A stretch of 32,000 nucleotides of DNA from Candidatus Saccharimonadota bacterium (GCA_963677105.1 OY781871.1:840001-872000), one strand, 5' to 3'. Shown: positions 5,441 through 32,000, numbered from the stretch's first letter. Translations and numbers: made by a program. Notes: generated by a model from the sequence alone, not told the origin.

Positions 5441-5777
5441 TTTGACGACCATTTCTCTCTCCGGTACAACTGCACGGATGACTTTTGAACCTGCTGGAAA
5501 TTTTTTATTTGCTGCTGCGAAAAAATATAATCTCGAATCACAAGCATTAGCTGGAATTATTTGTGAACGTGTGCGCACTTTTTTTATTCAAGAATTTTCA
5601 GAGTTTTCTCATGGATGGGAGCCAATAAAATTTGATTCAGGAGAATTAACAATTCAAGTTTCAGATGCTGCAGCAGGATCGGCACTTTTTTTACGAACAC
5701 ACGAAATCATGGAACAACTTGAAAAACAAGAATTGCCAGCAAAAATTGATCAGATACTTATTGCGCGTAGTTCTTGA
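5427..5777 (+). CDS. DUF721/DciA-like small protein (tentative)
   Basis: ATG at 5427 is preceded by GGAGG 7-8 nt upstream. The C-terminal pattern GELTIQVSDAAAGSALFLRTHEIMEQL resembles the DUF721 core (L.v.v.s...a.eL.....i...l). It overlaps the end of maf by 14 nt. Confidence 0.45.
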   Translation: MKGNNLTTISLSGTTARMTFEPAGNFLFAAAKKYNLESQALAGIICERVRTFFIQEFSEFSHGWEPIKFDSGELTIQVSDAAAGSALFLRTHEIMEQLEKQELPAKIDQILIARSS

Positions 5778-5824
5778 CTTTTGCACAGAACTTCTGGAAA
5801 ATTCAATGGATATATTTCAAACAC

Positions 5825-6895
5825 ATGCAAAAATTATTTACAATTTCGATGATTCTTTTAGGAATCAGTGGCGCAGGAGTTTTCCACATTGTTTCAGCAC
5901 AAGACGTAAAAACAATAGAGTTTTTTTCTGATCTCAATGAAGACTCTTTGGTAGGACAAGCTGCTGCAAATTTACGAGAAGCTAATATTATTTCAGGATA
6001 CGATGATGGAACATTTCGTCCAGATCAATCCGTGAATCGAGCAGAGTTAGCAAAGTTTTTACTATTAGCAAAAGGTCGTGATGTAAAAATTAAACATAAT
6101 AATGGTCGTTTCCCAGATGTAAAAGAAGGAGAATGGTATGTGAAATATGTGATTGATGCTGCGGAATTAGGAATTATTAATGGATATCCAAGTGGAAATT
6201 TTAAGCCCGCACAAACGGTAAATACAGCTGAGTTTTTGAAGATGTTGGTGAAAACATTTGATCTCCCAGAAAATTTAATGCAAGACTTTGCAGATGTTGA
6301 TTCAAATGTTTGGTATGCTGCATATGCAGGAAATGTTCCGGAGTGGGATTTGTTTCCAGATCGTGATCCGGCGTTTCTTGAGCCAGCACGAGAAATGACA
6401 CGAGGAGAAGTGGTTGTTGCATTATATCGAATTATGCGCCCGAAATTAGAAGAGATGGATGGTTTTTCGTCAGGTTCTTCAAGTTCCTCAATAACAGGAA
6501 AAACGCTCTCAGTTCGAGCAACAAATGAAAATCCTCAATTGACGATGACATATGCGGGGAAAGCAGAAGAGCTTATTTTACCATTATTAATTTCTGGGAA
6601 AGGAACAATAAAATCATTACAGTTGAAATTAAGTTCTGCTTCATTTCTTGATAAAGCATGGATCGAAGGAGGAGAGAAACAAGCGGCAAATCGTATACGT
6701 ATGACAATTCCAGTAAATCAAGAATTAACAGAAGGGGAAGACACATTGATAGAAATATTTGCGTCCATTCAATCAAGTGGTTTGACTCGAGGAGACAATG
6801 TAAAGGTGTTTTTAGAAAAAGTGGAAGTAGAAGTAAATGGAGAAACACACTTACAGGATTATCCAGTAGATGGATTCGAGTTAATGATTTTTTAG
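5825..6895 (+). CDS. secreted S-layer-homology (SLH) domain protein, three SLH repeats plus C-terminal beta-rich domain
   Basis: Signal peptide MQKLFTISMILLGISGAGVFHIVSAQ begins at ATG 5825 (the track's TTG 5774 is less likely). There are three SLH repeats: FSDL..ISGYDDGTFRPDQSVNRAELAKFLL, FPDV..INGYPSGNFKPAQTVNTAEFLKMLV and FADV..AREMTRGEVVVALYRIM. Confidence 0.8.
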   Translation: MQKLFTISMILLGISGAGVFHIVSAQDVKTIEFFSDLNEDSLVGQAAANLREANIISGYDDGTFRPDQSVNRAELAKFLLLAKGRDVKIKHNNGRFPDVKEGEWYVKYVIDAAELGIINGYPSGNFKPAQTVNTAEFLKMLVKTFDLPENLMQDFADVDSNVWYAAYAGNVPEWDLFPDRDPAFLEPAREMTRGEVVVALYRIMRPKLEEMDGFSSGSSSSSITGKTLSVRATNENPQLTMTYAGKAEELILPLLISGKGTIKSLQLKLSSASFLDKAWIEGGEKQAANRIRMTIPVNQELTEGEDTLIEIFASIQSSGLTRGDNVKVFLEKVEVEVNGETHLQDYPVDGFELMIF

Positions 6896-14574: not shown

Positions 14575-15555
14575 ATGAACGATCTGATTCAATCGGCACT
14601 TGCAACAACTGTTGATAAAATATCTTTCTCAGAAGCAAAAGAGCATCATAAAGGGAAAGTGCGAGAAAGTTTTATTCTCAATAATAATCAACGTGCAATT
14701 GTGGTTACTGATCGTATTTCTGCGTTTGATTTTGTTCTTGGAACCGTTCCATTCAAAGGACAAGTTTTGAATCAAATGGCAGCGTGGTGGTTTAAAAAAT
14801 TGGACGGAGTAGTTCCACATCATTTAATTGATGTACCAGATCCAAATATTTCTCTGGTAAAAAACGTAACGCCGTTGCCGATAGAAGTGATTGTTCGCGG
14901 ATATTTGACTGGATCTACGAAAACATCGAGTTGGTATGCATATCAGAATTTAGATCGAATGATTTGCGGAATTGAAATGCCAGAAGGAATGAAAAAGAAT
15001 CAGAAATTTGACACACCATTTATTACACCGACTACAAAACCAACGGAAGAAGGCGCTCATGATGAAAATATTTCTTCAGAAGAAGTAGTTTCTCGTGGAT
15101 TTGTTGACGTGGAAACATGGAAAAAAGCACGGGAATATGCGTTGAAAATGTTTGCTTTGGGGCAAAAAATTGCAGCAGAACATGGATTGATTCTCGTAGA
15201 TACAAAATATGAAATGGGAATGACTTCGGATGGAGAATTGATCGTAATTGATGAAGTTCACACGCCGGATAGTTCTCGTTACTGGATTGCGGACACATAT
15301 CAAGAATTATTTGAAGCAGGAAAATCCCCAGAATCACTTAGTAAAGAGTTTGTGCGTTCTGCGTTAGTTGAAAAAGGATACGATATAGATGATCCAAACG
15401 CTGATCCGGCAGAATATTTGAATGACGAATTACGCATTGCTGCGGCGAAGAAATACGTAGAATTGTACGAAAGAGTTACTGGAGAGAAATTCATTTTCCC
15501 AGAAGACATAGATGCAGAGGGACGGATTGAAAAGGCATTATCAAATATCAAATAA
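14575..15555 (+). CDS. purC: phosphoribosylaminoimidazole-succinocarboxamide (SAICAR) synthase, long form
   Basis: GKVRE, DRISAFD, VRGYLTGS, LILVDTKYEMG and DEVHTPDSSRYW motifs. Confidence 0.92.
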   Translation: MNDLIQSALATTVDKISFSEAKEHHKGKVRESFILNNNQRAIVVTDRISAFDFVLGTVPFKGQVLNQMAAWWFKKLDGVVPHHLIDVPDPNISLVKNVTPLPIEVIVRGYLTGSTKTSSWYAYQNLDRMICGIEMPEGMKKNQKFDTPFITPTTKPTEEGAHDENISSEEVVSRGFVDVETWKKAREYALKMFALGQKIAAEHGLILVDTKYEMGMTSDGELIVIDEVHTPDSSRYWIADTYQELFEAGKSPESLSKEFVRSALVEKGYDIDDPNADPAEYLNDELRIAAAKKYVELYERVTGEKFIFPEDIDAEGRIEKALSNIK

Positions 15556-15675
15556 CAAAGTACAAAGTACAAAGTACAAAGAGTCGTTTCGCTCAAAATA
15601 ACAAATTACAAACTACAAAGTAGTCGCTTCGCTCAAAACTACAGTATTCAAACTACAAAGTTCAAAATTTGAATT
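15556..15675 (+). repeat. largest copy of the intergenic repeat family: (ACAAAGT)x~3.9 perfect tandem heptamers, then two head+tail units
   Basis: The array begins around the purC TAA stop: its first A (15555) is the last base of the stop codon (15553-15555), and this feature is drawn from 15556. Sequence: AACAAAGTACAAAGTACAAAGTACAAAGAG TCGTTTCGCTC AAAATAACAAATTACAAACTACAAAG TAGTCGCTTCGCTC AAAACTACAGTATTCAAACTACAAAGTTCAAAA. Confidence 0.85.
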
Positions 15676-15741
15676 GTCTTTGCGAACGAAGTGAAGCAAT
15701 CTTGGATTACTTCGATTTACTTGTAATAATAAAAAGAACTT

Positions 15742-15815
15742 TGTCATTCTGAACTTGATTCAGGATCTATAAAAATAGTTTTTCGAGTAGATTGCGGATC
15801 AAGTCAACAATGACA
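15742..15815. repeat. imperfect palindromic (MITE/REP-like) element
   Basis: Left arm TGTCATTCTGAACTTGATTCAGGATC (15742-15767) against the reverse complement of the right arm GATTGCGGATCAAGTCAACAATGACA (15790-15815) gives 18/26 matches by hand alignment. A related half-copy lies at 19992-20018. An adjacent hairpin-like GAAGCAATC-TTG-GATTACTTC is at about 15700-15725. Confidence 0.55.
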
Positions 15816-15883
15816 GGAGAAAATTTGGTTTTTATAAAAAACATAAAAAGTGTTATTTAGCTAGTCTTTTTTGAATAAAAAAG

Positions 15884-15912
15884 TTGCACTGTGAATAGAG
15901 AATGCTCAGTAT
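15884..15912 (+). promoter_or_regulatory. putative promoter of pilin cassette 1 (TTGCAC-N17-CAGTAT)
   Basis: The same -35-like box, 17-nt spacing and hexamer are conserved upstream of cassettes 1-3. The -10 match to TATAAT is weak, so the assignment is tentative. Confidence 0.35.
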
Positions 15913-15947
15913 GTATGGGTAAAAATAATTTTTAACATCTCCCAAAA

Positions 15948-16679
15948 ATGAGAAATAAAAACCAACAGAAAGGGTTTACCCTTATTGAGTTGCTAGTGGT
16001 GATCGTGATTCTCGGAATCTTATCAACGATCTCAGTAGGAACATTCCGCTCATACTTCGCAAAAGCGCGAGATTCAGAGCGAGTATCGACAGTACAGAAT
16101 CTGGCGATGATGATGAAAGTAGATTCAGGAGGAAGTGGGGATTGTGGAGTTTATAATTATCAAGCAGCGAGTGGTACAACTCAAGACGCAAGTGGTGTTG
16201 AAACTGGTACATGTTCAAATCTAGGCGTATTGGGTAGTCTTTTGAGTAATAATGATTACGCAATGCCAACATCTAAAAATGGATTAAAATATTATTATGG
16301 ATTTAGATTAGGTGAGACAGAAGGGGATAATGAATTTTTTATTATGATTGGTGCAGAAGAAGAGAATCCACAGAATGGAAAAGCATTGGCTAGTGCTGAT
16401 GCTGGAGATCCTTATGAGTTTGCGTTTGTAGACGGAACTACAGAGGGAATTACAGAAGTAACAGCAAATTGTAATCCTGATAATACGACAGGAGCTCCTG
16501 TCTGTACGGCGAACGTTTGGAATGTTATAGAAATTCTAGATGGAGGAGCATTTGCGGGAACGCCAGCTTGTACGGTTAGTTCAAATAACACAACATTGCC
16601 TTGTGTGTGTGAGGGAGGAGCAACATGTAGTGGAGCGAATTCTTACTGTCAAATTGGTGGTACTTGTACAACGCCATAA
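15948..16679 (+). CDS. type IV pilin-like protein (prepilin N-terminal cleavage/methylation domain), paralog 1, Cys-rich C-terminal module
   Basis: MRNKNQQKG|FTLIELLVVIVILGIL is a class III signal (Gly-1, Phe+1, Glu+5). The core DSGGSGDC..YNY, NNDYAMP..KNGL.YYYGF, TEGDNEFF..GAEEENPQNGK and FVDGTTEGI is shared with the other three paralogs. Total of 10 Cys. Confidence 0.9.
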   Translation: MRNKNQQKGFTLIELLVVIVILGILSTISVGTFRSYFAKARDSERVSTVQNLAMMMKVDSGGSGDCGVYNYQAASGTTQDASGVETGTCSNLGVLGSLLSNNDYAMPTSKNGLKYYYGFRLGETEGDNEFFIMIGAEEENPQNGKALASADAGDPYEFAFVDGTTEGITEVTANCNPDNTTGAPVCTANVWNVIEILDGGAFAGTPACTVSSNNTTLPCVCEGGATCSGANSYCQIGGTCTTP

Positions 16680-16700
16680 GTGTTTTAGAAATTTAAATAA

Positions 16701-16731
16701 AAAAGCTTCTCTGAAAGGGGAAGTTTTTTTT
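16701..16731 (+). terminator. rho-independent terminator of cassette 1
   Basis: AAAAGCTTCTC-TGAAAG-GGGAAGTTTTTTTT forms a stem with one G.U pair followed by a T8 run. Confidence 0.65.
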
Positions 16732-16764
16732 GTGAAAAAAAAGTATTATCTAAATAAAAAAAAG

Positions 16765-16793
16765 TTGCAAAAAAGGATGTAAGATATCAGTAT
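16765..16793 (+). promoter_or_regulatory. putative promoter of pilin cassette 2 (TTGCAA-N17-CAGTAT)
   Basis: Conserved spacing and sequence with cassettes 1 and 3. The downstream leader GGGTAAAAATAATTTTTAA(T/C)ATCTCCCAAAATG is nearly identical to that of cassette 1. Confidence 0.35.
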
Positions 16794-16827
16794 ACACGGG
16801 TAAAAATAATTTTTAATATCTCCCAAA

Positions 16828-17430
16828 ATGAGAAACAAATACCAACAGAAAGGGTTTACCCTTATTGAGTTGCTAGTGGTGATCGTGATTCTCGGAATCT
16901 TATCAACGATCTCAGTAGGAACATTTCGATCGTACTTTGCAAAGGCACGAGATTCAGAGCGAGTATCGACGGTACAGAATATTGCGATGATGATAAAGGT
17001 TGATTCAGGAGGAAGTGGAGACTGTAAGGTATATAATTATGGAAATGGGTTAAAACATACGAGTGGAGATACTATAACTTGTAATGGAGTAGATACATCA
17101 ACATTAAAAACTCTTTTGGAAAACAATGATTATTCAATGCCAAGTGCAAAAAATGGATTAACTTATTATTACGGTTTTAAAATTGGTGCTACAGAAGGAG
17201 ATAATGAATTTTTTGTGGCAGTTGGAGCAGAAGAAGAACATCCACAAAACGGAAAAGAAGAGACTGGAGGTGGAGAATTTATTTTTGTAGATGGAACGAC
17301 AGAAGGAATTGCGGCGGCATTGGCAGGAGATGCTACAATAGATTGTGATGTTGCAGCAGGTGGTGTGATCACTTGTAATGCAACTAATTGGGAATTGTTT
17401 ACGATAGATGATGACGCAGAGCTTTTGTAG
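16828..17430 (+). CDS. type IV pilin-like protein, paralog 2
   Basis: MRNKYQQKG|FTLIELLVV... has the same N-terminus and core blocks. It is 200 aa with 4 Cys, and its C-terminal third is divergent. Confidence 0.9.
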   Translation: MRNKYQQKGFTLIELLVVIVILGILSTISVGTFRSYFAKARDSERVSTVQNIAMMIKVDSGGSGDCKVYNYGNGLKHTSGDTITCNGVDTSTLKTLLENNDYSMPSAKNGLTYYYGFKIGATEGDNEFFVAVGAEEEHPQNGKEETGGGEFIFVDGTTEGIAAALAGDATIDCDVAAGGVITCNATNWELFTIDDDAELL

Positions 17431-17451
17431 TAATGGAACAATTTAAGAAAG

Positions 17452-17478
17452 AACTTCCTCGAAAGGGGAAGTTTTTTT
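17452..17478 (+). terminator. rho-independent terminator of cassette 2
   Basis: AACTTCCTC-GAAA-GGGGAAGTT followed by T7. The hairpin sequence is conserved with the cassette 3 terminator. Confidence 0.75.
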
Positions 17479-17563
17479 CAGATAAAGGAGAAATAGTGGA
17501 TTAAATTAATTTATAAAAAAACATAAAAATTACATTTTTGCTATCTTTTTTTGAATAAAAAAT

Positions 17564-17592
17564 TTGCACTAAGGATAGAGAATGTTCAGTAT
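17564..17592 (+). promoter_or_regulatory. putative promoter of pilin cassette 3 (TTGCAC-N17-CAGTAT)
   Basis: The roughly 120-bp upstream region (TATAAAAAAACATAAAAA...TTTTTTGAATAAAAAATTTGCACTAAGGATAGAGAATGTTCAGTATGTAT) is a close copy of 15833-15915. Confidence 0.35.
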
Positions 17593-17625
17593 GTATCAGT
17601 AAAAATACTTTATAACATTTTCAAA

Positions 17626-18249
17626 ATGAGAAATAAAAACCAACAGAAGGGGTTTACCCTTATCGAGTTGCTGGTGGTGATCGTGATTCTCGGAATCTTG
17701 TCAACGATCTCAGTAGGAACATTCCGATCGTACTTCGCAAAAGCACGAGATTCAGAGCGAGTATCAACGGTACAAAATTTAGCGATGATGATGAAAGTAG
17801 ACTCTGGAGGACATGGAGATTGTACAGTGTATAATTATAAAGGGAATGGTGCAGGGTGTGCAACAACAGGTGTGGGTGTATTAGATACTGTACTGAAAGC
17901 GTTATTGACAAATAATGATTACTCAATGCCCGAAGCGAAAAACGGATTAGTTTATCATTATGCATTTTATGAAGGAGATACGGAAGGAGATAATGAATTT
18001 TTTGTTATGGTTGGGGCAGAAGAAGATAATCCACAAAATGGAAAACAATCTGGTGCAGGAGAATATATTTTTGTAGATGGAACAACAAAGGGAATTGCTT
18101 CGGCTACAAAAGGCGAAGCAACTGCTACGGGAACGGATCCAGGAGGTTGTACTATTGTGAGTGGGGCACCAACGTGTTTTACTAATTGGTCAACATATAC
18201 TATTAATTCAGATGGCGAATTGACGCTTCTCGTGGCAGCAACAACATAG
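17626..18249 (+). CDS. type IV pilin-like protein, paralog 3
   Basis: True start is ATG 17626 (MRNKNQQKG|FTLIELL), by homology with paralogs 1 and 2. The track's TTG 17551 reads through the promoter region. 207 aa with 4 Cys. Confidence 0.9.
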   Translation: MRNKNQQKGFTLIELLVVIVILGILSTISVGTFRSYFAKARDSERVSTVQNLAMMMKVDSGGHGDCTVYNYKGNGAGCATTGVGVLDTVLKALLTNNDYSMPEAKNGLVYHYAFYEGDTEGDNEFFVMVGAEEDNPQNGKQSGAGEYIFVDGTTKGIASATKGEATATGTDPGGCTIVSGAPTCFTNWSTYTINSDGELTLLVAATT

Positions 18250-18263
18250 AATATTATTTAATA

Positions 18264-18296
18264 AAAAAAACTTCCTCGAAAGAGGAAGTTTTTTTA
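18264..18296 (+). terminator. rho-independent terminator of cassette 3
   Basis: AAAAAAAACTTCCTC-GAAA-GAGGAAGTTTTTTT forms a perfect 9-bp stem with flanking A-run and T-run. Confidence 0.8.
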
Positions 18297-18335
18297 TTAG
18301 GAATAAAATTAAACACAGGTTCTAAAATATGTAAG

Positions 18336-18364
18336 TTGTAATTTTACTTATTTGTATTTATAGT
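18336..18364 (+). promoter_or_regulatory. putative promoter of pilin cassette 4 (TTGTAA-N17-TATAGT)
   Basis: Good sigma70-like spacing and a good -10 box. The sequence is unrelated to the promoters of cassettes 1-3. Confidence 0.45.
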
Positions 18365-18386
18365 GTGAAAGTATAAAAACATTCAG

Positions 18387-19085
18387 ATGAAACACGTATT
18401 AAAAAAATCAGGTTTCACGCTAATAGAATTACTTGTTGTAATTGTTATTTTAGGAATCTTATCAACGATATCCGTTGGTACATTCCGATCATATTTCGCG
18501 AAAGCTCGAGATGCGGAACGAGTATCAGCGGTTCAGAATATGGCGATGATGATTAAAGTAGATTCTGGTGGAGCAGGAGATTGTACAGTTTATAATTATA
18601 CAGACGATACTATTTTTCCAGATGGTTCAACTTGTCCAGATGCTTCATATTTGGCTTTTGGTCAGTTATTGAATAGTAATGATTTTAAAATGCCGAATTC
18701 AAAAAATGGATTAAACTACCATTATGCATTTTTGCCGGGAGCGACAGAAGGAGATAATGATTTCTTTATCGCCGTTGGAGCAGAAGAAAGTAATGCTGCT
18801 AATGGAATATTACAAGATGCTGGTACGGGGTTTTCTATTTTTGCAGATGGAACATCAGCTGGAATAGATATTGCACCTACTTGTATATGGACGAATGGAA
18901 ATTTAGTTAGTTGTGCGAATGTTGTAGAGGGAGCAGTAACAAGAGTATGGGAATTTCAAGCATTAACTGCAGGACTAAATGGTTGTTGGATTGGTAATTG
19001 TGTGGGTTGTACGGGAACCACAACGCAGTATTGTGTAGATGTTGGATGTAGTACAAGTGGTACTGATTGTGTAGATCCGGTGTAA
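18387..19085 (+). CDS. type IV pilin-like protein, paralog 4 (divergent leader, Cys-rich C-terminal module)
   Basis: MKHVLKKSG|FTLIELLVVIVILGILSTISVGTFRSYFAKARD shares the same 34 aa as paralog 1 but with different codons. The core blocks are conserved (DSGGAGDCTVYNY, KNGLNYHYAF, TEGDNDFF). Total of 10 Cys. No terminator follows, and its TAA stop overlaps the next ATG (TAATG). Confidence 0.9.
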   Translation: MKHVLKKSGFTLIELLVVIVILGILSTISVGTFRSYFAKARDAERVSAVQNMAMMIKVDSGGAGDCTVYNYTDDTIFPDGSTCPDASYLAFGQLLNSNDFKMPNSKNGLNYHYAFLPGATEGDNDFFIAVGAEESNAANGILQDAGTGFSIFADGTSAGIDIAPTCIWTNGNLVSCANVVEGAVTRVWEFQALTAGLNGCWIGNCVGCTGTTTQYCVDVGCSTSGTDCVDPV

Positions 19086-19939
19086 TGTCAAAAAAATGGA
19101 TTTGGTTGCGAGTAAGTCAAATATTATTAGACACATTAATTGTGTGGGGAATGTTTCTGCTTGCATACTTTGTGCGAGTACATTGGATATTTTCAACAGA
19201 TTTCCCATTTACATTATTTGCATTGCTTTCTGGTGCAGCAACGCTTGTATGGATCGCGTTTCTCGCGTTTGTAAAAGCATATCGACTTCCACCACGTTCA
19301 GGAGTGCGTTCGTGGTATGATATCGTTTTAATTATCGCTGGAGGAATTATTGCCGTTGGATTTTTAATTGTTTCGTACTTCTTTCCCCGCGAAATATTAT
19401 TTTCTCGTTTAATTGGAGTATATGCGTTCTTATTCGGTGCATTGTGGCTTATTTGTTCACAAAAGATATTTCGATTTTTTCTGGGACGATCAAAGAAAGC
19501 CGGAAAAGGATATAAAACATTGATTATTGGTGCGAATCGCGTTTCAGAGCAATTTGTTTCTCGTGTAAAAGCAGATTCGTTTGCACCATTTCAAATTATG
19601 GGAGTGATTGATCCGTATGGTTTAGCGAAAAAATTTAAAGGAGCTTTATTACTCGGGAAACTTGATCAATTAGAAAAAGTTTGTGAACGAGAAAAAATTA
19701 CGGCGATTGTGCAATGTGACGCATTTGAGCACACTCTTTCGCTTGTTTCGTTTTGTGAAGAACATGATATCAAGTTTCAATTTTTGCCTTCATTGAGAGG
19801 TGTTTTTGAGGATAATTTACGATTACGTGAGATTGCTGGAGTTCGTGTAGGATCACTCGTTCAGCGAAATTATTCAGGAATTAAAAGAACAAAATTTCAT
19901 TTAATTGATTGGCTTTTGGGGCAGGTTTTAGATATTTAG
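19085..19939 (+). CDS. N-terminal fragment of a WbaP/EpsB-type polyprenyl-phosphate glycosyl-1-phosphate transferase (membrane + Rossmann-like domain; catalytic Bac_transf domain absent); possible pseudogene
   Basis: Four N-terminal TM helices are followed by YKTLIIGANRVSEQFVSRV...IMGVIDP...LLGKLDQLEKVCEREKITAIVQCD, which is the CoA_binding_3-like region of large PGTs. The ORF ends at ...GIKRTKFHLIDWLLGQVLDI*, where the KRxxDxxxxxxxL start of the catalytic domain normally begins. No continuation is found downstream in any frame. Confidence 0.6.
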   Translation: MSKKWIWLRVSQILLDTLIVWGMFLLAYFVRVHWIFSTDFPFTLFALLSGAATLVWIAFLAFVKAYRLPPRSGVRSWYDIVLIIAGGIIAVGFLIVSYFFPREILFSRLIGVYAFLFGALWLICSQKIFRFFLGRSKKAGKGYKTLIIGANRVSEQFVSRVKADSFAPFQIMGVIDPYGLAKKFKGALLLGKLDQLEKVCEREKITAIVQCDAFEHTLSLVSFCEEHDIKFQFLPSLRGVFEDNLRLREIAGVRVGSLVQRNYSGIKRTKFHLIDWLLGQVLDI

Positions 19940-19990: not shown

Positions 19991-20114
19991 ATGTCATTTC
20001 AAACTTGATTTGGAATATATTTGAAAAGTGAAAAATTTATTAAAATTTTTCCTGAAGAAAGTTTCTTTATGAAACTTGTTTTGCAATAAATATGTCATCT
20101 TTAATTTTTTAAAC

Positions 20115-20486
20115 ATGACTGATTCTTCAAAAAACATTCTCATTCAAAAAACATACGTTTTTGCGCTAAGAATAGTGAAACTTTCTCAATTTTTAATACA
20201 AGAAAAAAAAGAATATATCCTTTCAAAACAAATACTTCGTTCAGGAACTTCAATTGGAGCAAACACAGAAGAGTCTATGGGAGGACAATCTAAAAAAGAT
20301 TTTTTTTCAAAATTATCGATTGCATACAAAGAAGCTCGTGAAACAAAATATTGGCTGCATCTTTTACAAGACTCAAATTATATTTCATTTAATCAAGCCT
20401 CTTCAATTTTAAATGATTGTGAAGAAATTTTGAAAATTTTAGGGAAAACTCTTTCAACCATTCGCAAAAAACAGTCAATAAAATAA
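20115..20486 (+). CDS. four-helix-bundle protein of the 23S rRNA intervening-sequence protein / Avd-like family
   Basis: KTYVFALRIVKL....SKQILRSGTSIGANTEE......DFFSKLSIAYKEARETKYWLHLL is the characteristic pattern of the TIGR02436/PF05635-type family. ATG 20115 is preferred to the track's TTG 20076. Confidence 0.85.
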   Translation: MTDSSKNILIQKTYVFALRIVKLSQFLIQEKKEYILSKQILRSGTSIGANTEESMGGQSKKDFFSKLSIAYKEARETKYWLHLLQDSNYISFNQASSILNDCEEILKILGKTLSTIRKKQSIK

Positions 20487-29360: not shown

Positions 29361-32000
29361 ATGAAAAATTTATACCAGTATTCGGCAAAAGAGAATCTTG
29401 CGAAATTTATTTTCATGGGAGGACAGACTTTCCGGGAGGATAGACCAAACGAACGAGATGATGTTCAAGATGGGAAAGCGAAAATGGAAGAACTTGTTTT
29501 AGCTGAAATTCAAGATGACTTGACCGAATTAAAGGGAAGCGTTCTTGATCGATATGCGGTTTACGATGCAGTTAGAACGGGGGGTGATAGAGAAGTGTAT
29601 AAACAAAGGGATGGAACTTTTATTTTAGAAGATCCCGATAATGATGAGAAAATTATTTTCAAACAAGGGGAAGAATTGAAAATAAAAGATGGGAAAAGGA
29701 ATCGTTCATTAAAAATTGATCTTAAAAACGATATAGTTAAGGAAAATGTTGGGTTTGAATTAGAACAGAAAGAAGATATAGAACAAGAAAAAATAGAGTA
29801 TAAAACAGAATCACTGAGAATTTTAGCTCAATATATTACCATTCGAGAAGATGGATACAGTCTTGATTTACATAGAGTAAAAGGAAGTGATACACCGAAA
29901 TTGTATGAAGCACTACGGGCGGTTGCTGACGATGAAAAATTGTCAATAGATGAGAGAAAGGATGTGTTACAAAAAATTGTTGATAGATTTCAAAAATATA
30001 CGGGAGATGAAGATAATAAAGAATTGTCAGATTTAGTAGCGGAGGCTCAAAAACATCTTAATACACTCAATGGAGTAGAAAAACCAGAAGAAAAGAAACC
30101 TGAAGCGACTTCAAAACAAGAAACAGTTGTGGCTGCAACCACTTCTGTTCCAGAAAAAAAAGAAACTGAGGCTGAAAAACAGGCTCGATTAGAACAAGAT
30201 AAGAAAGTCTTAGAAGACAAAGAGGCAGAAAGAAAAGCAAATGAGGAGAGAAAAGCCGCTCATGAAAATTTAGACAATGCACGAAAATTATTGGATAGCA
30301 TTGATTTTACTACATTAGATATAACAACTTATCAAGAATTTCAAGGGAAGTTAAATGAAATACATACACCAGTTCTTATTGCTGAGGAAGAAGGGAAAAA
30401 ATTCCCAGAATTAAAAGAAGATGCACTGAAATTAAAAAGTGATTTTGATGAAGCACGAAATAAAGTGGGAATTTATGAAAGGGGTGCAGGAGAACAAGAG
30501 AGAGTAGAAAAGAAATATCAAAAGAAAACGGAGGAGCAATTACAAGCAATGGATACAAAGATTGAGGATGAAGTGAAATTGTTTCAGGCAAAATTAGAAG
30601 AATTAGAGAAAAAACCAGAAAACTTACCAGAATCGCCTTTGTCTTTGGAACCAGCGGATCCTAAAACATTAGAGCAAATTCAGCAAGGAATGATGAGCCA
30701 CAGAACAGAATCTATGAAAACGTTAGAAGAAATAAATTTTCTTCAAGAATGTTCACAAGAATTAGGAGAAAAAATTGCAAAATTTGAAGAAAAAAAATCA
30801 GCCTTTACATTAGGAAATGTTGGACGATTTGTTGGTTCCTCAATTGCGATTTTACCCGGAATGGCCGTTGATCTAACAATGAAAGTTGGAGGTTGGTTTG
30901 GATTAAATCCTCAGAACAAACGAAGTATAGATGTTGCTGAAAAAATGTTCGGCGTAAAAAGTCCTGCTGCAGAATTACGGAAAGAAAAAGAGGCCTTTGA
31001 GATAAGTTTTGCAGAAAAACAACAAGTACTTGCAGGAAAGAAATCAGAATTAGATTCATATGGAAAAACATTGTCAACCAATTCGGAATCACTCAGAGCG
31101 AGTGCTCCAAATGATGTACGAACTTCTGTACGAAATGGTTTGATAGAAGATTTGCCAAAAGGTGCAGATCCAAATGTTGAGCCATGGAAAGGAATGATTG
31201 ATAAGATTACGGGAGAAGTCGAAGGAACAACGATTGCACAAGTTGCATCAGCGGTAGATCAGCTAGATATGAACGTAGATGGTTCTGTTTCAGAATTAAC
31301 AGAAGCAACAGGAGGGTCACTAGGAAGTCTTAATGATTCTTTAGAATATATTAAAACACTTGATATTACATCTGCAACAGCACTAGATATGTCGGTTGGA
31401 TTCTTAACAAAAAATGTAGCAAAAGTATTGGATGTATCAGGAGATTTCCTTGCAAAAATTCCAGTATTAGGTTTGGTTGGAGGAGTTCTTCGTGGAGCTG
31501 GAGGAATGATTGACGGAATTGGTTCAATGATTACCGATCCATGGAGTGTAGTAGAAGGATTAGGTGCACTTGTTGGTATTCCAAATGGATTAAAAGCAGC
31601 AGGAGAAGCATGGAAAGGATTGGGAATGGGGCTTTTTGCGGGAGAAGCATGGAGTGATATGGCAAAAGCATTTAAAGAAGGAGATTTAATGACTGCGTGG
31701 GGAGAAATGTCTGCGGCAGTTGGTGAAGTAGGATTAAATGTTGCGGCTACATTCTTTACTGGAGGAGCTGCTGCAGGAGCTCGTGGAGGAGCTGTTGCAG
31801 GACGAATTGGTAAAATGACATCAGCTATTTCTAAAGTTGCTACAAACATTCCAGGAGCGCGTTTTGCGGCACGTGCAGCTAAATGGACTTCAAAGACACG
31901 TGGAGTTCGTTATATAGGAAAAGCTGGAGATGTTATTCTTACTCCAATGAGATGGGGATTAAAACCATTGAAAGGATTAGGGAAATTTGGTACCAAAATA
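29361..32000 (+). CDS. 5' part (at least 880 codons) of a very large protein: charged/coiled-coil N-terminal ~480 aa, then hydrophobic and Gly/Ala-rich (glycine-zipper-like) segments; runs off the right edge
   Basis: Hand translation from ATG 29361 to 32000 has no stop codon (2640 nt, exactly 880 codons). It is absent from the ORF track only because it is open-ended. The 196-aa antisense ORF at 31259..31849 is its Ala/Pro-rich shadow. Confidence 0.8.
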   Translation, partial: MKNLYQYSAKENLAKFIFMGGQTFREDRPNERDDVQDGKAKMEELVLAEIQDDLTELKGSVLDRYAVYDAVRTGGDREVYKQRDGTFILEDPDNDEKIIFKQGEELKIKDGKRNRSLKIDLKNDIVKENVGFELEQKEDIEQEKIEYKTESLRILAQYITIREDGYSLDLHRVKGSDTPKLYEALRAVADDEKLSIDERKDVLQKIVDRFQKYTGDEDNKELSDLVAEAQKHLNTLNGVEKPEEKKPEATSKQETVVAATTSVPEKKETEAEKQARLEQDKKVLEDKEAERKANEERKAAHENLDNARKLLDSIDFTTLDITTYQEFQGKLNEIHTPVLIAEEEGKKFPELKEDALKLKSDFDEARNKVGIYERGAGEQERVEKKYQKKTEEQLQAMDTKIEDEVKLFQAKLEELEKKPENLPESPLSLEPADPKTLEQIQQGMMSHRTESMKTLEEINFLQECSQELGEKIAKFEEKKSAFTLGNVGRFVGSSIAILPGMAVDLTMKVGGWFGLNPQNKRSIDVAEKMFGVKSPAAELRKEKEAFEISFAEKQQVLAGKKSELDSYGKTLSTNSESLRASAPNDVRTSVRNGLIEDLPKGADPNVEPWKGMIDKITGEVEGTTIAQVASAVDQLDMNVDGSVSELTEATGGSLGSLNDSLEYIKTLDITSATALDMSVGFLTKNVAKVLDVSGDFLAKIPVLGLVGGVLRGAGGMIDGIGSMITDPWSVVEGLGALVGIPNGLKAAGEAWKGLGMGLFAGEAWSDMAKAFKEGDLMTAWGEMSAAVGEVGLNVAATFFTGGAAAGARGGAVAGRIGKMTSAISKVATNIPGARFAARAAKWTSKTRGVRYIGKAGDVILTPMRWGLKPLKGLGKFGTKI

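Follow-up and report, generated by a model that had tools for sequence, protein, structure and literature searches.

The four tandem genes at positions 15948-19085 of the window (the whole 32-kb stretch of DNA analysed here) are probably the main pilin genes of a Peribacteria-like CPR bacterium, and encode four type IV-a paralogs similar to major pilins. The reading that accounts best for the data, and that we hold with fair confidence, is that these paralogs are interchangeable or co-assemble, that their machinery is encoded elsewhere, and that each of cassettes 1-3 is transcribed separately, between a putative promoter and a terminator of its own. Tandem type IV pilin genes such as these make up a well-known sort of gene family, not a new system.

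Pilin identity, stem and head

The array consists of four intact ORFs on the + strand, as listed for the window: pilin 1 (15948..16679, 243 aa, 10 Cys), with an MRNK-type leader and a Cys-rich C-terminal tail; pilin 2 (16828..17430, 200 aa, 4 Cys); pilin 3 (17626..18249, 207 aa, 4 Cys); and pilin 4 (18387..19085, 232 aa, 10 Cys), of an old paralog type. For pilin 3 the ORF lister proposed a TTG start at 17551, which we rejected in favour of the ATG at 17626 that agrees with the paralog alignment. All four proteins read M(R/K)xxxxxxG/FTLIELL (the slash marks the predicted cleavage site), that is, they carry the prepilin cleavage and methylation motif with a short leader, Gly-1, Phe+1 and Glu+5, and a search of all six frames found no other prepilin-type N-termini in the window. 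The N-terminal methylation domain was detected in 4/4 proteins above curated cut-offs, both with PF07963 (E=2.6e-10, 3.8e-10, 1.8e-10 and 2.7e-08 for pilins 1 to 4; 33.5-40.4 bits, cut-off 21.2) and with TIGR02532 (33.6-37.4, cut-off 16.3), and the family profile matches solved type IV pilins through its N-terminal 50-70 residues (Geobacter PilA, 7.5e-15; Pseudomonas PAK pilin, 5e-10). Gly, Ala, Ser and Thr (GAST) make up 36-40% of the four pilins as against 24-25% of neighbouring proteins, and the range reported for abundant pilins covers these values (PMC11623550). The ORFs and profiles thus agree with an earlier note on this DNA, which had described four consecutive + strand pilin-like genes of these lengths; its further description of them as major-pilin-like is borne out by the GAST content, the leader, Phe+1, Glu+5 and the identical N-terminus of alpha-1.

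None of the 31 window ORFs scanned for domains matched pilB, pilC, pilD or pilM-type domains, as that note had also stated, and prepilin peptidase, PilB and PilC are absent from the 32-kb window, which is part of a 962,416-bp contig, and from all related loci. PilB, PilT, PilC, PilM, PilN, PilO and PilD occur widely among CPR bacteria (PMC6744442), Peribacteria genomes encode genes for twitching motility and type IV pilus biogenesis (PMC4736985), and Saccharibacteria have pilin-only loci apart from the machinery (PMC11623550).

In the alignment, residues 10-42 are identical in the four pilins and residues 10-71 nearly so, a near-identical alpha-1 stem of the kind expected of interchangeable major-pilin paralogs such as Streptococcus sanguinis PilE1 and PilE2. 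Overall identity to gene 1 is 68, 69 and 52% for genes 2, 3 and 4, and the heads are 40-61% identical to each other. The four sequence blocks that had been proposed as common to all the proteins exist, except that the second reads SNDFKMP in gene 4 rather than NNDY.MP. The N-terminal half of alpha-1 hardly varies, with a column entropy of 0.03 bits, as against 2.3-2.7 bits in the alpha-beta loop, the loop at residues 144-157 and the C-terminus; placed on an AF2 model, the variable segments lie in the alpha-beta loop, in a single loop of the sheet and in the C-terminal region. The models of pilin 1 (pLDDT 85) and pilin 4 (pLDDT 79.9) show a helix at 12-60 and then a beta-sheet, with 5-8 strands predicted, and are of low confidence in the Cys-rich tails. 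Foldseek returned no significant solved-structure neighbour for either model, so that it is from predicted secondary structure only that the head is assigned a pilin fold. Searched against 1.84 billion proteins, a profile of the head has no more than 71 matching cluster representatives. With regard to the disulfide-bonded C-terminal D-region of type IV-a pilins, four Cys columns (C66, C83, C166 and C176 in pilin 4 numbering) are invariant in 30 aligned pilins, most of which have 8-10 Cys; Cys-rich tails are present on two of the four window pilins, 1 and 4.

Cassette anatomy and the last gene of the array

The four cassettes, all called self-contained in the heading of the earlier note, are not equivalent copies. 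Cassettes 1-3 are copied units; cassette 4 is of the old paralog type, always last and coupled to a membrane-protein gene. The upstream region of cassette 1 (15836..15947, +) is 78% identical to 17516-17639 and contains a T/A-tract (15866-15883), a -35-like TTGCAC (15884-15889), a 17-nt spacer, a -10-like CAGTAT (15907-15912) and then ~35 nt of leader, in which no Shine-Dalgarno sequence is obvious. The corresponding region of cassette 2 (16757..16827, +) has an A-tract, TTGCAA (16765-16770), CAGTAT (16788-16793) and a leader with 90% identity to the cassette 1 leader, and that of cassette 3 (17516..17625, +) has a T/A-tract, TTGCAC (17564-17569), CAGTAT (17587-17592) and a leader. Direct repeats confirm that upstream DNA, like the terminators, was copied, but the proposed length of 95-120 bp is too great for cassette 2, where only ~70 nt are shared, from the A-tract and -35 box on. 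The pattern TTGCA(C/A)-N17-CAGTAT occurs three times in the window against 0.04 expected, and TTGCAC-N17-CAG(T/A)AT is also found upstream of MRNK-type pilins in three other assemblies (L001, L004 and L007); the two boxes and the upstream T/A-tract are kept across assemblies, while spacer and leader vary. The boxes of cassettes 1-3 match the sigma-70 consensus weakly, and a promoter scan tool flagged none of them.

Each of these cassettes ends in a hairpin with a T-run on the + strand, at 16699..16732 (-14 kcal/mol, z -3.1), 17447..17478 (-17.3 kcal/mol, z -4.0) and 18264..18295 (a perfect 14-nt inverted repeat; -20.5 kcal/mol, z -6.7). The hairpin motif is matched three times in the window, with 0 expected, in keeping with the copied terminator that had been proposed for each cassette, although terminator 1 is a variant (GCTTCTC-TGAAA-GGGGAAGT). 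The repeats, together with the conservation of the boxes in other assemblies, uphold the view that whole transcription units were duplicated in cassettes 1-3.

As the earlier note had it, cassette 4 has a different promoter-like site (18336..18364, +; TTGTAA-N17-TATAGT), unrelated to those of cassettes 1-3, lacks the hairpin and runs into the next gene. The stop of pilin 4 and the start of that gene overlap in TAATG at 19083-19087. Pilin 4 groups with the last pilin of the other arrays (L001_4, L004_5 and L008_1); judging by these sequences, cassette 4 is an older paralog that always stands last. The overlapping gene (19085..19939, +) encodes a conserved membrane protein of 284 aa with ~four hydrophobic N-terminal segments, read by eye from the sequence, followed by a CoA_binding_3 domain (PF13727, E=2.5e-07), and lies directly 3' of the last pilin in every related locus. 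The protein's likeness to WbaP-type phosphoglycosyl transferases is confined to their non-catalytic N-terminal part: the protein matches TIGR03025 over positions 1-266 of 445 only (74.7 bits, cut-off 295), and CoA_binding_3 is its sole Pfam match, the catalytic Bac_transf domain being absent from the product. Its 141 homologs are all 284-287 aa long, so it is not a recent truncation. Cassette 4 would be co-transcribed and translationally coupled with this gene. In Pseudomonas aeruginosa, pilA has an accessory gene directly downstream, for example tfpO/pilO or tfpW-Z. The two cases are alike in that a membrane-protein gene right after the pilin gene is conserved together with it, but the protein described here is unrelated to TfpO, and any role in glycosylation would be hypothetical.

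The peculiarities of cassette 4, with its old type, fixed last place, different promoter and coupling to a membrane protein, would suit an array of one major pilin as bulk subunit plus minor or tip pilins of low abundance, which would prime assembly or provide an adhesive module, especially the 10-Cys cassettes 1 and 4, which bear an extra C-terminal extension as modular pilins do; distant relatives, moreover, have just two dissimilar pilins at the site. We consider this unlikely. In known systems the minor pilins are as a rule very unlike the major pilin and one another, whereas the four pilins of the window share an identical stem, have heads of the similarity given above and are all major-pilin-like in GAST content, and cassettes 1-3 have apparently the same strong promoter architecture.

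Evolution of the locus

The order purC, pilins, CoA_binding_3 gene, gyrB was found in 12/12 distinct related contigs examined and is the same at the window locus, with pilin copy number ranging from 2 in distant relatives to 3-5 in close ones. Between the window and L004 the heads are 39-57% identical, against 79-89% for the flanking genes of the same pair. Within the genes, dN is 0.03 in codons 10-72 and close to dS in the variable parts; synonymous sites there are saturated, so that positive selection and relaxed constraint are indistinguishable. Whole-gene omega (dN/dS) is 0.27-0.44, which indicates purifying selection overall, and thus no gene looks like a decaying copy. The dS of 0.69-0.87 between cassettes 1-3 indicates that they are old copies; all are intact, with no family-invariant residue lost.

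The 5' ends show concerted evolution, with gene-conversion tracts between copies. A run of 328 nt is the same in L004_2 and L004_3, which beyond it are only ~48% identical, and in the window a run of 85 nt at the 5' end is common to cassettes 1 and 2. Paralogs of one genome fall together in a tree of 5' DNA, but in the head tree it is those of one type that do; a 5' gradient among the window cassettes is only marginal in synonymous-site tests (p = 0.06-0.08). The earlier suggestion that the array provides substrate for recombination-based variation is therefore right as to recombination, but the tracts homogenise the 5' parts and leave the copies more alike, not more diverse. In Neisseria pilE/pilS, the donor copies are silent, promoterless and 5'-truncated, and conversion diversifies the expressed gene. 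The window array resembles that system in being a multicopy family with conversion between copies and with constant 5' and variable 3' parts. A Neisseria-like silent donor system was nevertheless rejected, because all four copies are complete, with a start codon, leader peptide, full N-terminus and promoter-like site of their own; they are apparently expressed, and the tracts lie on the conserved 5' part.

The nature of the filament was also considered. Relatives carry the database labels 'type II secretion system protein' or 'GspH family', the N-terminus weakly matches GspG, GspH and ComG models, and DNA uptake has been proposed for CPR pili (PMC6744442, PMC11452946), all of which would agree with subunits of a short pseudopilus or DNA-uptake pilus (type II secretion-like or Com-like) rather than of an adhesive or motility pilus. 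This is quite improbable, since the matches fall far under curated cut-offs and involve the shared N-terminus only, the mature pilins (191-234 residues) are much longer than ComGC and GspG, whose models have lengths of 84 and 134, several fast-evolving, Cys-rich exposed heads suit a surface filament more than a periplasm-like piston, and CPR cells have neither PilQ nor an outer membrane (PMC6744442). Copies left over from duplication and redundant in function, useful for dosage only or partly being lost, would fit the copy number of 2 to 5 among relatives and the dN close to dS in variable parts, but are most improbable in view of the age and intactness of cassettes 1-3 with all their family-invariant residues, the whole-gene omega, the kept promoter boxes and terminators, and the divergent heads, which dosage alone does not favour.

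Known systems and proposed working

Interchangeable or co-assembling major pilins, the reading that we favour, have a precedent in S. sanguinis, where two major pilins, PilE1 and PilE2, form a heteropolymeric type IV pilus, either paralog alone builds pili and mixing is stochastic (PMC10628169, PMC6497953). There too the cell that has the paralogous major pilins lacks an outer membrane, the paralogs have one and the same alpha-1 stem, and their differences lie mainly in an alpha-beta loop insertion and the C-terminal tail. The window, however, has four genes, whose heads are not extensively identical and which lie apart from the machinery, with a promoter-like site and terminator for each of cassettes 1-3; co-assembly is here a proposal. 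Several paralogs with a nearly identical hydrophobic domain are also found in Haloferax volcanii, whose adhesion pilins PilA1-PilA6 are not co-regulated with biogenesis genes, differ in adhesion and microcolony behaviour, and appear to be expressed in subsets under different conditions (PMC4371748). These pilins are archaeal, PibD-processed and free of the Glu+5 rule, and the sequence relationship is limited to the class III signal. Closer in lineage is the CPR bacterium Nanosynbacter lyticus TM7x, whose pili mediate host binding and motility, whose pilin-only loci three and four are separate from the pilB/pilC/pilD loci, and in which heads diverge fast while the machinery is conserved (PMC11623550). 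In contrast to the window array, locus three of TM7x holds one major and dissimilar minor pilins rather than close paralogs; the CPR lineage is different and the head domain unrelated.

We propose that each prepilin would be inserted into the membrane, cleaved after Gly-1 by a prepilin peptidase and polymerised by a PilB/PilC-type machine encoded elsewhere in the genome. All four should fit the same machine and filament, because residues 10-42, the core-packing part of the stem, are identical among them and nearly invariant in the family. Since the subunits differ in the exposed alpha-beta loop, in a loop of the sheet and in the C-terminal region, each would give the filament a different surface, the subunits being mixed in one filament or replacing one another. 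The array would change by tandem duplication of whole cassettes, with gene conversion keeping the leader and 5' coding part uniform as the heads diverge fast.

[quoted passage not shown] In it the independent promoters would allow head variants to be chosen or mixed, conversion would keep the stem uniform, and the fast-changing, partly Cys-rich heads would decide to which partner cells or surfaces a Peribacteria cell attaches. If so, the array would determine the host range of an uncultured lineage in a form that can be read.

The pilin cassettes and their flanks

Four pilin-like genes stand in tandem on the + strand of the window (GC content 35.8%): pilin 1 at 15948-16679 (243 aa), pilin 2 at 16828-17430 (200 aa), pilin 3 at 17626-18249 (207 aa) and pilin 4 at 18387-19085 (232 aa). 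The mechanical ORF start of pilin 3 is a TTG at 17551, which falls inside the promoter region of that same gene; we took the ATG at 17626 as its start because the leader, MRNKNQQKG, is then that of genes 1 and 2. The earlier reading of these leaders as type IV pilin-like agrees with profile searches, in which all four proteins score above the curated thresholds of PF07963 (33.5-40.4 bits) and TIGR02532 (33.6-37.4 bits); model searches with pilins 1-4 found nothing convincing beyond such prepilin N-terminal methylation models. Against gene 1, pilins 2, 3 and 4 show 68, 69 and 52% identity, and residues 10-42 are the same in all four. The internal blocks that had been described as shared are present, except that NNDY.MP reads SNDFKMP in gene 4. 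A six-frame scan of the 32 kb found no G|FTLIE-type N-termini beyond the four pilins. Antisense ORFs of 90-101 aa (- strand, 15982-16272, 17169-17441 and 17660-17965) lie within the pilin genes, over the 5' stretches that are conserved, and probably result from the repeated sequence instead of being genes.

A direct-repeat analysis gave 90, 90 and 75% identity over the first 220 nt of the pilin genes, a 42-nt leader common to cassettes 1-3, a 40-nt terminator block 3' of genes 1, 2 and 3, and a 124-nt stretch, ending 12 nt inside the gene, that cassettes 1 and 3 have in common (78%). The proposal that whole transcription units had been copied is thus upheld for the upstream DNA, leaders and terminators of cassettes 1-3, with the restriction that the upstream match of cassette 2 covers only ~70 nt because terminator 1 abuts it. 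The window contains exactly three copies of the motif TTGCA(C/A)-N17-CAGTAT (0.04 expected) and three of the cassette hairpin motif (0 expected). The folding energies of hairpins 1, 2 and 3 are -14 (z-score -3.1), -17.3 (-4.0) and -20.5 kcal/mol (-6.7), and the remaining terminator-like hairpins of the window have unrelated stems. Cassette 4 differs, as had been noted from the sequence: its upstream region, with TTGTAA-N17-TATAGT, is unrelated to those of cassettes 1-3, and it has no hairpin. Its stop (TAA) and the start (ATG) of the following gene overlap as TAATG (19083-19087). Rfam and tRNA scans found no RNA genes within or beside the array.

Since none of cassettes 1-3 was picked up by a generic sigma-70 scan, their promoters were assessed by comparing genomes. 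In three related loci from other assemblies (L001, L004 and L007), all pilins with an MRNK/MKNK leader are preceded by CTTTTTTTGAA(C/T)AAAAAA, then (G/T)TTGCAC, a 17-nt spacer whose sequence varies between these pilins, and CAG(T/A)AT, a motif absent elsewhere in the fetched loci. The other pilin types have a distinct common box, extended -10-like (TTTGTTATACT), in most cases with a hairpin and T-run on its 5' side. This conserved footprint argues for separate transcription units, and from it we infer promoter activity.

The spacer between purC and the array (15536-15830) holds three ~40-nt direct repeats rich in ACAAAGT (15536-15661) and two segments, 15682-15701 and 15743-15767, each unique within the window; at its place L004 carries a DUF559 endonuclease-like gene.

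Copy number, paralog types and gene conversion

The relatives with pilins of this family bear the label Candidatus Peribacteria or Candidatus Gracilibacteria, and GyrB of the window and of a Peribacteria MAG match at 89% identity. The gene order in every related contig examined is purC (SAICAR synthase), the pilins, a CoA_binding_3 gene and then gyrB on the opposite strand. Most of the distant loci (L010-L016, one on a 1.3-Mb contig) have two pilins, the calls of L016 being fragmentary; L009 has three, L007 at least three (its contig ends in the array, and L008 comes from the same MAG), L001 and the window four each, and L004 five. The shared purC-gyrB position and a copy number running from two to five indicate that the site is ancient and that the array expanded in the clade of the window. 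The public call of the second pilin of L001 (9275-9892) is cut to 152 aa, although the DNA encodes a 205-aa pilin whose leader is normal. When a head-only profile (residues 34-170) was searched against 1.84 billion proteins it returned just 71 cluster representatives, and the pilin head is therefore a small, clade-restricted family. Five giant fn3/Ig repeat proteins from this search (P0123, P0136, P0147, P0151 and P0164) were set aside as spurious because their scores are sums of weak hairpin matches.

The family comprises two classes, one with four cysteines and ~200-211 aa, to which pilins 2 and 3 belong, and one with ten cysteines, 218-250 aa and a Cys-rich C-terminal extension, which includes pilins 1 and 4. 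The head-region tree places gene 4 with the last pilins of other arrays (L001_4, L004_5 and L008_1), and genes 1-3 in one clade with the second and third pilins of L004 (L004_2, L004_3). This grouping points to gene 4 as an old paralog of fixed position and to genes 1-3 as products of a more recent, lineage-specific duplication of whole cassettes. Pilins of the last-position type in several relatives (L001 10682-11350, L008 127-810, P0038 and P0047-P0057) have Ala in place of Gly at -1 (MNKKSSA|FTLIE); that of L001 starts right where the pilin before it stops, and neither a promoter nor a terminator separates the two.

Cassettes 2 and 3 of L004 (6780-7397 and 7656-8288, in a Peribacteria MAG; also L006) share 328 nt without a mismatch, even at third positions (permutation p < 0.0005). 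The tract spans the leader to about codon 110; beyond it identity is ~48%, and the promoter spacers differ too, so that diverged sequence lies on both sides. We read it as a sharp, recent gene-conversion tract. Genes 1 and 2 of the window share an 85-nt identical run (p < 0.0005, by a permutation that ignores site heterogeneity), and a synonymous-only half-split test of the same pair gave p = 0.06. A tree of codons 10-71 clusters paralogs by genome, and the head tree clusters them by type. These patterns amount to concerted evolution of the stem. The earlier note had also seen in the array a possible substrate for recombination-based variation; the conversion detected homogenises the 5' parts, and the array is not a donor-cassette diversification system.

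Variation along the protein

Nei-Gojobori estimates for genes 1-3 gave a whole-gene dS of 0.69-0.87 and an omega of 0.27-0.36 (0.27-0.44 with gene 4 included). By region, dS was 0.37-0.45 and dN ~0.03 in codons 10-72, dS 0.56-0.93 and dN 0.20-0.25 in the conserved core, and dN 0.7-1.2 in the variable segments, where dS is saturated; divergence across the genes is not uniformly neutral. Gene conversion accounts for part of the low dS at the 5' end. Pairwise dN/dS cannot demonstrate positive selection on the heads, because the variable segments have saturated synonymous sites and align unreliably. Pilin heads of the window and L004 are 39-57% identical, and the flanking genes of the two 79-89%.

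In the predicted structures (AF2; gene 1, pLDDT 85 and pTM 0.76; gene 4, pLDDT 79.9), a helix of residues 12-60 leads into a small helix and a beta-sheet, the Cys-rich tails being poorly predicted. Column entropy among 61 close family members is 0.03 bits in the N-terminal half of alpha-1, 0.47 in its C-terminal half, 1.33 in the core, 2.35 in the alpha-beta loop (72-94), 2.70 in the loop at 144-157 and ~2.4 after residue 170. The filament-exposed positions of type IV-a pilins are established for the family, and it is there that the variation sits: the variable segments map to the alpha-beta loop and C-terminal region, where the earlier note had proposed to look for them, and also to loop 144-157. 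The family profile matches solved pilins over the N-terminal 50-70 residues only, and Foldseek with whole AF2 models found no significant neighbour.

Downstream gene, assembly machinery and meaning

Next after the last pilin in every related locus comes the gene of a 284-aa CoA_binding_3 membrane protein (19085-19939, +), with about four hydrophobic N-terminal segments as read by eye. It aligns only to positions 1-266 of the 445 of a polyprenyl glycosylphosphotransferase model, lacks the catalytic domain and resembles the non-catalytic portion at the N-terminus of a WbaP-type phosphoglycosyl transferase; a comparison with solved structures gave no sequence match. Its 141 homologs, nearly all of 284-287 aa, are confined to the same clade, and in near relatives it is 85% identical, versus ~60% for the pilins. 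Of the 25 pilin-bearing contigs that reach 20 kb, 15 also carry the gene (contigs paired by the proxy of equal size). We hypothesize that the protein might be a pilin accessory. Between this gene and gyrB, a 23S rRNA intervening-sequence protein (PF05635, four-helix bundle) is encoded at 20076-20486 (+); the equivalent gene of L004 is on the opposite strand, L001 has an unrelated 125-aa ORF in its place, and the spot seems to turn over. Further along, 3' of the PNPase gene, an open frame of at least 880 codons (29361-32000, +) runs past the window end, is missing from the ORF list because it is open-ended, and is syntenic with a 1405-aa protein of L001 without Pfam match.

The window holds no assembly genes, as had been stated: T2SSE, T2SSF, A24 peptidase and PilM-type domains were found in none of the 31 ORFs scanned, nor were machinery genes found near the pilin arrays of relatives. 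The pilins examined for such neighbours included some that match at the N-terminus only (P0104 and P0113), and every one sits at the purC-gyrB site with no machinery genes beside it. Genes for twitching motility and type IV pilus biogenesis are present in complete Peribacteria genomes (PMC4736985), PilB, PilT, PilC, PilM, PilN, PilO and PilD are widespread in CPR, with PilQ absent (PMC6744442), and Saccharibacteria keep pilin-only loci separate from machinery loci (PMC11623550); given these reports, the machinery is likely encoded at an unlinked site in the genome. The new 'Pam' pilus of CPR (bioRxiv 10.64898/2026.03.03.709456), which works by donor-strand exchange, is not related. At 5774-6895 (+) this small CPR-type genome encodes a 373-aa protein with S-layer homology (SLH) domains, which may be relevant to the envelope that pili must cross.

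The best-supported reading is that the four pilins are interchangeable or co-assembling major-pilin paralogs. This reading has its nearest precedents in PilE1/PilE2 of S. sanguinis, with identical stem, differing alpha-beta loop and tail, and stochastic mixing (PMC10628169), and in PilA1-6 of H. volcanii, whose hydrophobic domain is identical among paralogs. Less likely are an arrangement of one major pilin plus minor pilins, a pseudopilus for secretion or DNA uptake, and plain redundancy of the copies. The locus reveals no new mechanism; what it adds of interest is a clean cassette structure, conversion tracts, a copy-number series and a conserved downstream membrane protein.

Type IV pili are regarded as central in the contact of CPR bacteria with other cells and, to our knowledge, almost all CPR pilus experiments come from Saccharibacteria. 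The locus provides a defined set of principal pilin genes, syntenic and easy to find, for the clade labelled Peribacteria/Gracilibacteria and, because a frozen stem is set against fast-diverging heads, copy number runs from two to five and gene-conversion tracts are clear, it makes a practical subject for work on attachment by metatranscriptomics, metaproteomics and population studies at strain level.
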